This document shows, one piece after another, positions 31,048 through 46,188 of a stretch of 64,000 nt of DNA (positions are counted from its first letter, which is position 1; each line of letters begins with the position of its first letter). The position numbers and the translations under genes are program-made. The DNA comes from Acidimicrobiia bacterium. Lineage in GTDB: Bacteria; Actinomycetota; Acidimicrobiia; Spongiisociales; ZC4RG35. Location of the stretch: the NCBI GenBank assembly GCA_965203555.1, contig CBDBCY010000004.1:3008001-3072000 (forward strand). Reading direction: 5' to 3'. The notes beneath the pieces are model-generated. The model was given only the letters and a program-made list of their open reading frames with translations. It was not told where the DNA came from and did no database searches.

Positions 31048-32241
31048 ATGCGCATTCTGGTGGTCAACTGCGGCAGTTCCTCCATCAAATACAAGCTGTA
31101 CGGGATGGGGGCGGGCGAACCGCAGGCGGCGGGAATGATCGAGGGCCTCGGAACCGGCGAGGCCCGGCACGTCCACCGGGCCGGGCGATACCGCAGAGAA
31201 ACCGTCATGGCGGTTCCCGACTACCGATCGGGGGTGGCGCAGGTGGTCGAGGCGCTGACGCAATGGGGGTCGCCCCCGCCGGTACAGGATCCGGAGGAGA
31301 TCGTCGGGGTCGGCCATCGGGTGGTCCATGGCGGGGAGGAGTTGACCGAATCGGTGGTGATCGACTCCTCGGTGATGGAGGCCATCGGCGCACTCGACTC
31401 CCTGGCGCCCCTGCACAACCCGGCGAACCGGGCGGGCATCGAGGCCATCGCCGAACTGTTGCCCCACAGCACCGGGGTGGCGGTCTTCGACACCGCCTTC
31501 TTTGCCACCCTCCCGCCCCACTCCTATCGGTACGCCGTGCCGACTCGCTGGTGGCGGGACTTCGGGGTGCGGCGCTACGGGTTCCACGGCATAAGCCACC
31601 GCTACCTGGTGGAGCGGGCCTCCCGACTCCTGGACCGACCCCGCCCCAACCTGGTGACCTTCCACCTGGGAAACGGCGCCTCGGCCTGCGCGGTCCGGGA
31701 GGGCAGGGCCGTGGACACCTCGATGGGGATGACGCCCCTTGAAGGTCTGGTGATGGGTACCCGAAGCGGCGACATCGACCCGGCGGTCGTATTCCACCTG
31801 CTGGAGGCCGGGCTGTCGGTGTCAGAGATCCGCCGGGGTCTGGAAAGGGAAGGGGGCCTTCAGGGCTTGAGCGGGATATCCTCCGACTTCCGCCGACTGT
31901 GCGAGGCCGCCGACGCGGGACAGGCATCCGCCGCCCTGGCGTTGCAGGTGTTCGCCCACCGGGTCCGTCGCTATCTCGGTGCCTTCCTGGTCCAGGTGGG
32001 CAGATGCGACGGGGTGGTTTTTTCCGGGGGGATTGGAGAGAACAGCGCCCGGGTCCGCCGGATGGTGGTAAGTGACCTGGTATCCATCGGGCTGGTCCTG
32101 GACCCCGGCAGAAACGGCGGGGCGGGAGAGAGGCGCATTTCCGCCGAGGACAGCCCGATCCCCATCTGGGTGATCCCCACCGACGAGGAGTCGCTCATAG
32201 CTCGGGACACCGCCCGGCTGGTGAGGGTCGGTCGGGCTTGA
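31048..32241 (+). CDS. ackA: Acetate kinase
   Basis: ILVVNCGSSSIK, GHRVVHGG, APLHNP, FDTAF, RRYGFHG.SH, HLGNGAS, TSMGMTPLEGLVMGTRSGD, GGIGENS, PTDEE. Confidence 0.95.
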   Translation: MRILVVNCGSSSIKYKLYGMGAGEPQAAGMIEGLGTGEARHVHRAGRYRRETVMAVPDYRSGVAQVVEALTQWGSPPPVQDPEEIVGVGHRVVHGGEELTESVVIDSSVMEAIGALDSLAPLHNPANRAGIEAIAELLPHSTGVAVFDTAFFATLPPHSYRYAVPTRWWRDFGVRRYGFHGISHRYLVERASRLLDRPRPNLVTFHLGNGASACAVREGRAVDTSMGMTPLEGLVMGTRSGDIDPAVVFHLLEAGLSVSEIRRGLEREGGLQGLSGISSDFRRLCEAADAGQASAALALQVFAHRVRRYLGAFLVQVGRCDGVVFSGGIGENSARVRRMVVSDLVSIGLVLDPGRNGGAGERRISAEDSPIPIWVIPTDEESLIARDTARLVRVGRA

Positions 32242-32761
32242 AGCCGGTCCGGCGGCGGCGGTGGTCGGTCGGGCGGTACGATCGGTGGGAATGAAGCTGT
32301 ACCTGAAGGCGGCGCTGTTCACGGTGGTGGCGCTCGGTTCGGTGGGGGGCCTGATTCCAGCCTGGCTGGCGAGGGGTCGTGAGGCGGCGGATGGGGCGGC
32401 AATGGTGGTGGCCCTGTGCCTGATGGCAATCGGTGCGCTCATCTACCTGCGCTGCGTGTGGGACTTCGCGACATTCGGGAGGGGAATCCCCGCTCCGATC
32501 AGCGCACCGAAGCGGCTGGTGATTCGGGGTCTGTACCGCTACACCCGAAACCCGATGTACCTGGGGCTGCAGATCCTGGTCGCCGGGTGGGCCATTCTGT
32601 TCGGATCGTTCGTCCTGGTGGGATATGGGGTTTTCCTGTTCATCTTCTTCTCACTGTTTGTGCATTTCCACGAAGAGCGGTACCTGTCCCGGGAGTACGG
32701 CGACGAGTACGAGCAATACAAGGCGCGGGTGGGCCGCTGGCTGCCCCGGTTGCCCCGCAGG
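32128..32761 (+). repeat. Copy 1 of a diverged ~630-bp direct duplication (ackA 3' end + ICMT gene)
   Basis: Aligns by eye with 34388..35010 from GAGAGGCGCATTTCC to CCCGCAGG; the intergenic parts differ. Confidence 0.85.
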
Positions 32762-32764
32762 TAG
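32291..32764 (+). CDS. Isoprenylcysteine carboxylmethyltransferase (ICMT/PEMT) family membrane protein, copy 1
   Basis: G.G.PAP..APKRLVIRGLYRYTRNPMYLG, EERYL..EYG.EY..Y..RV.RW. Confidence 0.88.
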   Translation: MKLYLKAALFTVVALGSVGGLIPAWLARGREAADGAAMVVALCLMAIGALIYLRCVWDFATFGRGIPAPISAPKRLVIRGLYRYTRNPMYLGLQILVAGWAILFGSFVLVGYGVFLFIFFSLFVHFHEERYLSREYGDEYEQYKARVGRWLPRLPRR

Positions 32765-32971
32765 GCATTGGTTTGTCATCCCAGACTCCTTGAATCCATC
32801 GGAGACATCCCACCCGTCGAAAAGAGAGCCAACCGCTACTGTAAACTACCACCACAGTCGGAAAACCCCTTTAGGTGAAACGTCTCGCGACAGAACACGG
32901 GCCGGTTCTCTGAGGGTGGCCTTTTATTAGAGTCTCGGATCTGCCCTTCCTTGGTTAGCGGTATTGTGGGT

Positions 32972-33530
32972 TCACTGAAAGCCGAGTTGAGGCGACTCTG
33001 TGTATGGTTCCGAAACGGTGGCGCTGATGAGACTATCCCATTGCTCACGGGTGGTTTTCTTTTCGTAGGTGAAAAATTGGGAACACTCTTGCAGTTCCGC
33101 CGAAGCCAGATGGATGGCGTCGGCGGATCGTACTCCTCGGAGTCCTTTACTGCGAGCCCGTCGTATGATCGAACGGGCCTGCAGTGCAGCTCTCTGAGAG
33201 AAGTCGATAACTGATATCGGTGATGCCACGGAGGCATGCGATGACGGTGTTTGGGATTTCATGGCTCTGAGAGAAGTCGATAACTGATATCGGTGATGCC
33301 GGTGTCCACAGTTGGTCAATTCTCCTTTCACTGGAAGGTGAATCGGTGTCGCCTGTTGCTATGTATGCAACTTCAGTGATCGACAAAACGGAAGTGAATA
33401 GCCCGACCCTGTCGTTTCGGGCATCGTCTAGGACCGATTGCACTACGTCCGCGCGGTGTTCCTCATCGCTCACGTAAGCAAGCAGGACATTGGCATCGGC
33501 GTAAACTCTGGGACGTCTAACGGGCGGCAT
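32972..33530 (-). pseudogene. PIN/VapC-family ribonuclease disrupted by a 73-bp insertion
   Basis: Deleting one 36-bp repeat plus the 37-bp spacer restores a 161-aa ORF with VYADANVL, SITEV, ADAIHLASA and FFTYE PIN motifs. Confidence 0.85.
33192..33300. repeat. Exact 36-bp repeat - 37-bp unique spacer - 36-bp repeat (single CRISPR-like unit inside the PIN gene)
   Basis: CTCTGAGAGAAGTCGATAACTGATATCGGTGATGCC at 33192-33227 and 33265-33300. Spacer ACGGAGGCATGCGATGACGGTGTTTGGGATTTCATGG at 33228-33264. Confidence 0.93.
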
Positions 33531-34299
33531 CCCTGATCCGTCTGACTGCCTGTTCCGCAGGCTCTCCGATGTGAAACGCCCCGCGCGCCTGCCGGAAACC
33601 CAATGGATCACCCTCGTCTATGGTGTCCACTTGCGTGATGTCCCGGATCGAGATCGGCTGTCCGGTGGAGGCCTGGCGGGTGATGGTGCCGGTTACGTCG
33701 GCGACGCGCCCCCAGACATCGCGCATGGTCTCCTCAAGGCCAGGATCGGGATGGCACCGAACAGACTTGTCGCTGGCGAGTTCATAGAGAATGAAGCGCA
33801 GACCCCTGCGGTGGGAGAGCGTCTCTACCCGTCCCCGTACAGTGCCGCGAGAGGTTGTGTTTTTTGCCTGCCGTTCGGCAGTTGCAGACCAGGTGAAGGC
33901 CGTAAAGGCCACCTGCTCACCGGCCGCTTCCAGAACGATCCCGTTCTTCTCGTCGGCGACCTCTGCCAGTTCACGAATGCGGCCCACAATCGCACGATCC
34001 GAATGGGTATTGCCGCCTGCAACCCGCAAGGCCACTTGTAGAAGTTCTTCGGTCATGGCCGGGATGGCTTGTTCGGCCTGCCGGTTGAGGGGCGTCGCGC
34101 GGGCGGTCACCGCCGCGCTACCGTGTTCGAGCCCGGCCAGCACCCATCGCACCCCGGCGTCATGACTCTCGTCGAGAGCCTGAAGCACCCTGGTGAACCG
34201 GGCACAGACCTCTGACAGCTTCCCGATGGTCACTTCGCCGTCGAGTCGGAACCCGACAATGCCTTTGGAAATTTCTTTCGTGGTGCTGCAAGGGTTCAT
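33517..34299 (-). CDS. Hypothetical 260-aa protein, putative large antitoxin partner of the PIN toxin (possible OB-fold C-terminal half)
   Basis: Overlaps the PIN start by 14 bp. Beta-rich GTVRGRVETL...RFILYE...VRC...VADVTG segment and a short C-terminal helix EQAVRRIRD. Confidence 0.65.
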   Translation of the reverse strand: MNPCSTTKEISKGIVGFRLDGEVTIGKLSEVCARFTRVLQALDESHDAGVRWVLAGLEHGSAAVTARATPLNRQAEQAIPAMTEELLQVALRVAGGNTHSDRAIVGRIRELAEVADEKNGIVLEAAGEQVAFTAFTWSATAERQAKNTTSRGTVRGRVETLSHRRGLRFILYELASDKSVRCHPDPGLEETMRDVWGRVADVTGTITRQASTGQPISIRDITQVDTIDEGDPLGFRQARGAFHIGEPAEQAVRRIRDAAR

Positions 34300-34387
34300 T
34301 GGTTTCGCCTCTGCCTAGGGAGATCGGCTATGTTGACGATGGTAGCCACCAAGTATTCACTCACTGCAAGGGCTTGGAGTGGTCCCG

Positions 34388-34490
34388 GAGAGGCGCATTT
34401 CCACGGACGACAGTCCCATCCCTATTTGGGTTATCTCCACCGACGAGGAGTCGTTCATAGCCCGTGACACGGCCCGACTGGTACTTCGGG
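34388..34490 (+). pseudogene. Duplicated 3' fragment of acetate kinase
   Basis: Translates ERRISTDDSPIPIWVISTDEESFIARDTARLV, versus AckA C-terminus ERRISAEDSPIPIWVIPTDEESLIARDTARLV. Confidence 0.85.
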
Positions 34491-34539
34491 CTAGGTGCGA
34501 AGAGGGCACTCTGGGCAGTCGGGGGTTACATTTGCGAAT

Positions 34540-35022
34540 GTGAAACTCTATGTGAAGGCCGCGGTGTTCACCCTGGTGATGCCCGGTGGCGTCGGCGGTC
34601 TGGTTCCGGCCCTGCTGGTGAGAGGCCGGGACGCGGCGGATGGAGCGTTGATGGTGCTGTCGGTGTGCCTGATGGCAATCGGCGCGGCCATGTATGTGCG
34701 TTGCGTATGGGACTTCGCGGCGTTCGGGAAGGGAACGCCTCTTCCCATCGACGCGCCGAAACGGTTGGTTATACGGGGTCTCTACCGGTACTCGAGGAAT
34801 CCGATGTACGTGGGACTGCTGACCCTGATCGCCGGATGGGCCATCCTGTACGGCTCGATCGTGCTGGTGGGGTACGGGGTGTTCCTCTTCGTCTTCTTCT
34901 CGGTGTTCGTGTATTTCTACGAAGAGCGGCACCTGTCCCGGGAGTTCGGCGAGGAATACGAGGCATACCAGGCGCAGGTGGGCCGGTGGCTACCCCGGCT
35001 CTCCCGCAGGGACGTGTCCTGA
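34540..35022 (+). CDS. ICMT/PEMT family membrane methyltransferase, copy 2
   Basis: Same motifs as 32291..32764, roughly three-quarters identical by eye. GTG at 34540 aligns with the ATG of copy 1. Confidence 0.88.
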   Translation: MKLYVKAAVFTLVMPGGVGGLVPALLVRGRDAADGALMVLSVCLMAIGAAMYVRCVWDFAAFGKGTPLPIDAPKRLVIRGLYRYSRNPMYVGLLTLIAGWAILYGSIVLVGYGVFLFVFFSVFVYFYEERHLSREFGEEYEAYQAQVGRWLPRLSRRDVS

Positions 35023-46097: not shown

Positions 46098-46188
46098 GGG
46101 TCCGTGCCGGGTGCGGTCGGGAGTTCCCTCGATGCGCTTTTCCGCCTCGTCGTCGAGCGGGTCCGTGCCGGGTGCGGTCGGGAGTTCC
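46098..46188. repeat. Exact 30-bp direct repeat separated by 31 bp
   Basis: GGGTCCGTGCCGGGTGCGGTCGGGAGTTCC at 46098-46127 and 46159-46188. Confidence 0.85.

Follow-up and report, generated by a model that had tools for sequence, protein, structure and literature searches.

A repeat-spacer-repeat unit within a PIN gene

The locus described here lies in a window of 64,000 nucleotides (nt) from the genome of an Acidimicrobiia bacterium (assembly GCA_965203555.1, contig CBDBCY010000004.1, positions 3,008,001 to 3,072,000, forward strand). Positions without a contig name are counted from the first letter of this window, and positions in the whole contig are marked with C4. On the minus strand of the window a gene for a PIN domain protein carries an insertion of 73 nt, which leaves 36 nt of the gene in two identical copies on both sides of 37 nt of unrelated DNA. 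[quoted passage not shown] We compared the locus with the complete assembly, with related genomes and with contigs of public sequencing runs. The features of the unit and of the interrupted gene are the following.

33192..33227, plus strand: arm 1, a 36-nt 'pseudo-repeat' at the pseudo-leader side, exact copy of 33265-33300; the orientation is taken from the likeness to the canonical leader-repeat junction
33228..33264, plus strand: spacer-like insert of 37 nt with 54% GC, single-copy in the genome and missing from the empty-site alleles
33265..33300, plus strand: arm 2, 36 nt, exact copy of arm 1; in the empty-site contig of sequencing run X3, 36 nt fit either side of the 73-nt skip
33147..33530, minus strand: truncated PIN frame (PF01850); beginning with the methionine at 33530, the N-terminal 88 residues (33530-33267) are native and are followed by 39 residues read out of frame through the insert up to the stop codon at 33147-33149
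32972..33226, minus strand: stranded C-terminal PIN part (PF01850), 84 codons plus stop, out of frame with the start; 73% identity to residues 78-161 of the orthologue in congener G015
33517..34299, minus strand: intact upstream partner gene of 260 amino acids, whose 3' end overlaps the PIN start by 14 nt

A repeat search of the region 32500-34000 identified the two arms, which are 100% identical and 73 nt apart from start to start, as the sole direct-repeat family. The boundaries of the arms are sharp: the preceding base is T in one case and G in the other, the following base is A or G, and the 15-nt flanks of the two arms show identities of only 0.33 and 0.13. An exact 36-nt repeat at such a spacing is far beyond chance, and the repeat search together with the differing flanks confirmed the exact duplication around 37 bp of unrelated DNA that had been read from the sequence. 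Neither the 36-mer nor the 37-mer has a further exact copy in the genome (3.417 Mb in four contigs). The central inverted repeat CGATA-N5-TATCG, which had also been pointed out, is present in the arm, but with a stem of 5 bp and a folding energy of -4.2 kcal/mol it is weak and no better than shuffled sequences, 72 or 118 of 200 of which fold equally well. An inverted-repeat scan of 32500-34000 revealed no inverted repeats of at least 12 nt, and a scan of 32500-34500 with Rfam resulted in one sub-threshold snoRNA match only, which corresponds to chance. A tandem duplication or slippage was rejected as origin of the unit, since the identity between the insert and the DNA on either side of the arms does not exceed 0.35 and the flanks cannot be aligned with each other.

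Characterization of the interrupted gene demonstrated that its two halves are located in the open reading frames 33147..33611 (N-terminal) and 32972..33331 (C-terminal). Both halves match the Pfam family PIN (PF01850), the first one over profile positions 1-74 (25.2 bits) and the second one over 62-112 (23.1 bits). They align end to end with the intact 161-amino-acid PIN protein of congener G015 with identities of 67% and 73% and overlap on the 11 residues ASPISVIDFSQ, which are encoded by the duplicated 36 nt. The intact orthologue from G015 matches PF01850 with 53.3 bits over profile positions 1-113. The insertion shifts the reading frame of the 161-amino-acid PIN gene and is predicted to give rise to a truncated protein; the earlier statement that 73 bp interrupt a PIN frame of this length is borne out by the two halves, which span the intact protein of G015.

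For the 260-amino-acid partner no match to Pfam or to NCBIfam-type profiles was obtained. The pair of partner and PIN gene with the identical overlap of 14 nt is also present in G015, and the partner is presumed to be the antitoxin or another partner component of the module. PF01850 extends across the reconstituted protein and a partner gene is located upstream, as in genes for PIN-domain (VapC-like) toxins; the toxicity is predicted. The partner is conserved in G015 and may be an antitoxin belonging to a family not yet described.

Presence of the insertion in sequencing data and empty sites in relatives

Contigs of four public sequencing runs, designated X1 to X4, were compared with the region 32700-33800. 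In X1 a unitig of 97 nt (33198-33294) joins arm, insert and arm. An additional unitig of 36 nt shows a depth of 10 in comparison to 3.7-5 for its neighbours; since this is about twice the depth of the neighbours, the graph has the pattern expected for two copies of the arm. Run X2, which derives from another sample of the same study, contains a contig of 283 nt (33199-33481) with 0 differences to the window. The insertion is present in contigs of both runs, which answers the question if it can be recovered from sequencing data.

These data also bear on the idea that the unit is an assembly artefact caused by a false loop through the repeat in the graph. The graph does hold a 36-nt node which is traversed twice, as such a loop would need. 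However, the depth of this node is about twofold, the 97-nt unitig of X1 and the 283-nt contig of X2 hold the 37-mer joined to the arms, and the 37-mer is found nowhere else in the genome, so that it can only be placed between two arm copies. We consider an artefact to be extremely improbable.

Run X3 belongs to a different study. One of its contigs (3343 nt) covers 32700-33191 and 33265-33754 with 7 other letters and one gap over 982 nt. This contig skips exactly 73 nt (33192-33264), and 36 nt fit both sides of the joint. X3 thus contains the empty site in a strain with about 99.3% identity. The contigs of X4 do not cover the insertion site. Among the congeners, DNA matches to the region were found in five out of 16 (60 related genomes were compared), and two of these, G015 and G005, span the site with a gap of exactly 73 columns. 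The matches in G007, G002 and G012 stop short of the site and are uninformative with respect to the insertion.

X3, G015 and G005 all show a precise empty site without any other rearrangement. Judged by these alignments, the insertion is derived, precise and polymorphic, and it is also recent, because a strain with about 99.3% identity retains the empty site. The uninterrupted allele that had been anticipated in relatives was found both in this strain and in the two congeners. Two other parts of the original prediction did not hold: instead of a 'fossil' we see an event which is recent and polymorphic, and the suggestion that the insertion was retained because it knocked out a toxin is not supported, as a nearly identical strain still carries the intact allele.

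Some observations concern the surroundings of the partner-PIN cassette. It is located between two diverged direct copies (32128-32591 and 34388-34840, 76-85% identity), which comprise the 3' end of an acetate kinase gene and a gene similar to isoprenylcysteine-carboxyl-methyltransferases; the downstream piece of acetate kinase is a fragment. The cassette may have come by a local duplication or may have triggered it. At the edge of the cassette there is an element of 35 nt (32782-32816) with three copies in the genome (C4:2326142, C4:3040782 and C4:705410, at most 5 mismatches). Each of the four runs contains contigs from elsewhere which agree with this element and then diverge. The element is a short dispersed repeat. 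In X4, a contig of 2238 nt from a sponge metagenome matches the partner gene from 33521 on with one difference in 280 nt; before 33521 it contains a different sequence, by eye methyltransferase-like. The PIN gene may be absent there, as far as this single contig with a depth of 5 indicates.

The resident type I-G system, the target site and the insert

The genome contains one match to Cas1, a Cas4g/Cas1g fusion of 546 amino acids (NF049935, 769 bits, profile positions 1-546 of 546). It is flanked by Cas2 (TIGR01573, 43 bits at a cut-off of 24.5), Csb2 (Cas5-6g), Csb1/Cas7g, Csx17/Cas8g and Cas3g. All these genes are encoded on the minus strand at C4 ~2457680-2466614 and form an apparently complete type I-G locus. 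A leader of about 170-190 nt follows, and then the array C4:2457112-2457508, the sole CRISPR array detected in a scan of the genome, at a distance of about 583 kb from the PIN unit. The array consists of six identical repeats of 36 nt and of spacers with 35, 37, 37, 37 and 35 nt. The leader is 74-83% identical in four arrays of three congeners (G014, G008 and two arrays in G003), and this conservation fixes the orientation of the array.

The spacer lengths of the homologous arrays in the three congeners were determined as well. The repeats were located by matching the own 36-nt repeat with up to 6 substitutions, and the spacer lengths were derived from the distance of one match to the next. 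From these arrays 116 spacers were pooled, with lengths of 35 nt (26), 36 nt (43), 37 nt (26), 38 nt (14), 39 nt (4), 40 nt (2) and 50 nt (1); 95 of them fall into the range of 35-37 nt. The arm length of the PIN unit (36) is identical to the length of the resident repeat, and the insert of 37 nt lies within the range of the resident spacers. Both a cas1/cas2 module with an array and the lengths of 36 nt for the repeat and about 37 nt for the spacer had been foretold before the array was known, and the Cas4/Cas1 fusion with Cas2 and the lengths in the own array agree with this expectation.

With five spacers the own array is short in comparison to the homologous arrays of G008, G014 and G003, which gave 30 to 133 repeat matches. 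A reset not long ago, recent acquisition or a weakly active system could be behind this. Furthermore, single isolated copies of a type I-G-like 36-nt repeat were observed at two loci, L016 (G007:C1, near locus position 1506) and L017 (G001:C139, near locus position 1501), with no neighbouring repeats within the loci examined; they could be orphan repeats or ends of collapsed arrays.

The beginning of arm 1 was compared with the canonical junction between leader and repeat, which is read in the direction of the cas genes and in which the leader end and the repeat start are invariant in 5 junctions of 4 genomes. The corresponding feature at the ectopic site is given below; the slash marks the boundary, and the genus-conserved junction is added for comparison.

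33186..33201, plus strand: pseudo leader-repeat junction, positions -6 to +10, GCAGCT/CTCTGAGAGA compared with CGAGCC/CTCCGAGGGC

The two sequences agree in 10 of 16 positions on the plus strand (P=0.009). This value means that 0.9% of 1,000,000 random boundaries reach the same agreement in the better of two orientations, and the window used for it was fixed by the conservation of the junction. Two further comparisons rest on windows chosen post hoc: in positions -4 to +9 there are 10 matches out of 13 (P=0.0005) and the three mismatches are all transitions, and a gapped alignment of the junction 19-mer has an edit distance of 4 (P ~1.2e-4). In the opposite orientation the agreement within -4 to +9 is reduced to 3 of 13. 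The same difference is visible in the first 9 nt of arm 1, which match the canonical type I-G repeat in 7 of 9 positions in the plus orientation and in 1 of 9 in the minus orientation.

The origin of the insert was analyzed with several collections. Within the own genome the best non-self match of the 37-mer (blastn-short) is an exact stretch of 13 nt with E=1. Within the limits of the assembly (95% complete), the absence of a genomic source for the 37-mer excludes a local template switch; the concern that it might be a copy of neighbouring DNA is answered by the same result. Phage records yielded 15 matches and plasmid records 6, none of which covers at least 80% of the 37-mer (best E 0.5 and 0.4, respectively). 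Exact 37-nt scans of viral contigs (IMG/VR), JGI metagenome contigs and GTDB genome contigs, which detect perfect matches only, resulted in 0 matches each. A reference query of 61 nt produced 22 non-self matches in 301 genomes of the order, all of them partial or of low identity and at chance level, among them one in G226 with E=0.088; in the 17 genomes of the genus it found the own genome only.

These results are relevant for the idea that a small mobile element, or an integrase or recombinase other than Cas1, produced a target-site duplication of 36 bp and left a footprint of 37 nt. Target duplications of insertion sequences (IS) and transposons comprise roughly 2-14 bp, and those of casposons about 14-15 bp. 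A duplication of 36 bp exceeds these ranges. The insert is single-copy in the genome, phage and plasmid records hold no other copy and the viral, metagenome and genome contigs no exact one, and there is only one gene of the Cas1 family. Nothing specific speaks for such an origin, and in our view it is very unlikely. A target duplication by a transposon or IS, or its excision footprint, had also been considered as a candidate and was rejected in view of the 36-bp duplication, the single-copy insert and the fact that no inverted repeat was reported.

A genome-wide direct-repeat filter was used to estimate how often units of two arms and an insert (A-B-A units) occur. Units were retained if their arms had at least 18 nt, enclosed an insert of 15-70 nt, ended sharply and occurred twice only. 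This left five units, namely the PIN unit, a pair belonging to the CRISPR array and three more. Two of these three are spaced by 45 and 48 nt; both numbers can be divided by three, and these units are possibly in-frame repeats. A second clean A-B-A unit is located at 46098-46188 of the window (C4:3054098-3054188), 13 kb from the PIN unit, with exact arms of 30 nt and an insert of 31 nt. Its position is upstream of a gene for a short-chain dehydrogenase, and the DNA there is not conserved in the congeners. Its insert is identical over 30 nt to C4:1567927-1567956, or over 33 nt with one mismatch (to 1567959). This source copy is part of an open frame of 508 codons, 1.49 Mb away. Compared with the type I-G junction, the second unit matches in 2-5 of 13 positions, and its lengths of 30 and 31 nt fit no array examined in the genus, where the repeats are 36 to about 37 nt long. 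Another CRISPR type of the genus as origin of this unit was rejected, as the arrays associated with non-fused Cas1 (G013 and G007) have repeats of about 37 nt, judged by eye. The second unit can be used as an internal control which lacks both integrase-linked features of the PIN unit.

The second unit is at the same time an argument for a generic duplication with filler DNA. In such an event, a template switch or the repair of a staggered break would have captured other DNA and re-copied 36 nt, and the agreement with the CRISPR lengths would be coincidental. The presence of a 30+31+30 unit in the same genome, with an insert copied from another place and with lengths which fit no array of the genus, implies that a route outside the type I-G system is possible. 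However, a generic event gives no reason to expect arms of exactly 36 nt together with an insert in the range of 35-37 nt, both foretold before the array was known. It also does not predict the likeness to the junction (P 0.009 to 0.0005), which is missing from the second unit, and the 37-mer has no template in the genome whereas the insert of the second unit has one. We regard a generic event as unlikely, although less so than a mobile element.

Interpretation and comparison with known systems

The explanation which we favor is that the 73-nt insertion arose by one recent off-target spacer integration, probably catalyzed by the resident type I-G Cas4/Cas1-Cas2 (probability about 0.82). The structure of the unit, the agreement of the lengths, an apparently complete type I-G cas locus, the empty sites and the insertion in the run contigs were observed, whereas we deduce which enzyme acted, in which order the two attacks took place and that the insert is foreign. 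The integrase would have carried a prespacer of about 37 nt. A first, sequence-guided attack would have taken place at the junction-like site on the antisense strand of the PIN gene (AGCT/CTCTGAGAG compared with AGCC/CTCCGAGGG). The second attack would have hit the opposite strand at a distance of 36 bp, as in the own array, and the repair of the gaps would have duplicated 36 bp on either side of the insert. The outcome would be a frameshifted and truncated PIN protein and a scar of the integrase. The assignment of the first attack to sequence and of the second one to distance is suggested by the arm itself, because the leader side is matched and the far end is not, while the stagger is still exactly 36. 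The core of the original prediction, an off-target integration by Cas1-Cas2, is supported by the insertion in run contigs, by the matching module and lengths, by an insert which is no copy of genomic DNA and by the empty alleles.

Several points weigh against this explanation. The likeness to the junction is modest, with P about 0.01 for the window fixed by conservation. The whole arm agrees with the true repeat in only 14 of 36 positions (P=0.17), the invariant 3' block of the repeat is matched in 6 of 18 positions, which is not significant, and 127 sites in the genome differ from the junction 19-mer by no more than 4 edits. A protospacer, which would point to a foreign origin or reveal a TTN-type protospacer-adjacent motif (PAM), was not found in the own genome, in phage and plasmid records, in the exact-match scans of viral, metagenome and GTDB genome contigs, or in the genomes of the order and the genus. 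With regard to the sequencing data, runs X1 and X2 belong to a single study, and the assembly itself was probably made from X1; as support they are not fully independent. Finally, the unit at 46098-46188 indicates that another process or another integrase may be able to generate A-B-A units in this genome. It is mainly this hint at another route which keeps our confidence at the stated value.

The prediction had also described the unit as a nascent CRISPR locus. The RNA of the canonical repeat forms a hairpin of 8 bp with -17.2 kcal/mol, and only 2 of 200 shuffled sequences fold as well. The ectopic arm is without this hairpin; at -4.2 kcal/mol, 118 of 200 shuffled sequences fold as well. In addition, the unit contains a single spacer and is antisense to the PIN operon in the orientation of the repeat. 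As the arms are predicted to be incapable of forming the repeat hairpin, the unit is most probably a scar and not a working mini-array, and the term nascent locus had to be given up.

A wider interpretation would be that in this lineage the integrase repeatedly causes natural mutations by inserting DNA outside the array, with the PIN unit as the seed of a new array and the unit at 46098-46188 as a second event of this kind. The second unit would then be due either to the resident integrase, whose ruler had slipped, or to another integrase which is now absent or unrecognised. If true, this would be a mutational process not yet described in wild bacteria. We consider this extension doubtful.

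If the insertion is ascribed to the resident integrase, it has several implications. Host genes would be exposed to insertional mutagenesis by CRISPR adaptation, and this would be a price of having the system. The PIN site would provide a natural readout of the site choice of a type I-G integrase, and the 36-bp stagger in spite of an unlike far arm end fits a ruler mechanism. It is also a concrete substrate for the question of how new arrays might arise. In practical terms, the unit suggests a genome-wide screen for A-B-A units with an arm length equal to the length of the resident repeat.

For overexpressed Cas1-Cas2 of the E. coli type I-E system, Nivala, Shipman and Church reported in 2018 that off-target integration leads to new repeat-spacer-repeat units (cited in 10.1101/148544, PMC7054753, PMC6698737, PMC9456107 and PMC11788318). 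According to the citing passages, such integration can spawn new arrays, and it occurs in regions outside arrays with possible effects on fitness. 'Circumstantial evidence' of off-target integration was mentioned for two other species (10.1101/148544). As far as these passages go, off-target integration by Cas1-Cas2 had been seen in plasmid assays and in E. coli with overexpressed enzymes, and the natural evidence was only circumstantial. In the limited collection of literature searched, no natural gene-disrupting off-target integration with an empty-site allele was described. The PIN locus combines, in wild material, a filled site, a precise empty site, a resident integrase with a matching array and a junction-like target.

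Like the neo-CRISPR loci of E. coli, the PIN unit shows a repeat-length duplication of non-CRISPR chromosomal DNA around an insert of spacer length, at a site somewhat similar to the true one. It differs from them in that it is natural, arose without overexpression and belongs to a type I-G system with a Cas4/Cas1 fusion. Furthermore, the PIN unit inactivates a protein-coding gene, the empty allele is present in a strain with about 99.3% identity, and it is a single unit with no sign of growth.

With canonical type I-G adaptation the locus shares the Cas4/Cas1 fusion and Cas2 next to leader and array and an insert of about 36-37 nt (PMC6547450, PMC10274657). The Cas4/1-Cas2 of the Geobacter type I-G/I-U system inserts mostly spacers of 36 bp with a TTN PAM (Almendros et al. 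2019, PMC6547450), and type I-G integration begins at the leader side (Dhingra and Sashital 2023, PMC10274657), which corresponds to the first attack proposed for the PIN site. In contrast to the canonical reaction, the target here is a PIN gene at a distance of 583 kb and not the leader-proximal repeat.

Off-target sites of the Cas1-Cas2 from S. thermophilus resemble the leader-repeat junction in vitro (PMC6895254). The PIN site is comparable to the in vitro reactions of Cas1-Cas2 from S. thermophilus (type II-A) and from P. furiosus with respect to both a junction-like off-target site and a ruler-like second attack (PMC6895254, PMC6698737): the leader side matches, the far arm end agrees in 6 of 18 positions, and the stagger is exactly 36. 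However, those cases are plasmid assays with other CRISPR types, whereas the PIN case is a heritable chromosomal event. The 'ectopic spacer acquisition' in Streptococcus (PMC7999890, PMC5338259) likewise does not take place at the leader-proximal repeat, but these events occur inside true arrays at genuine repeats, whereas the PIN unit is located outside of any array in a sequence which is not a repeat. Placed beside these systems, the PIN case is a new and unusually complete natural example of the known off-target integration.

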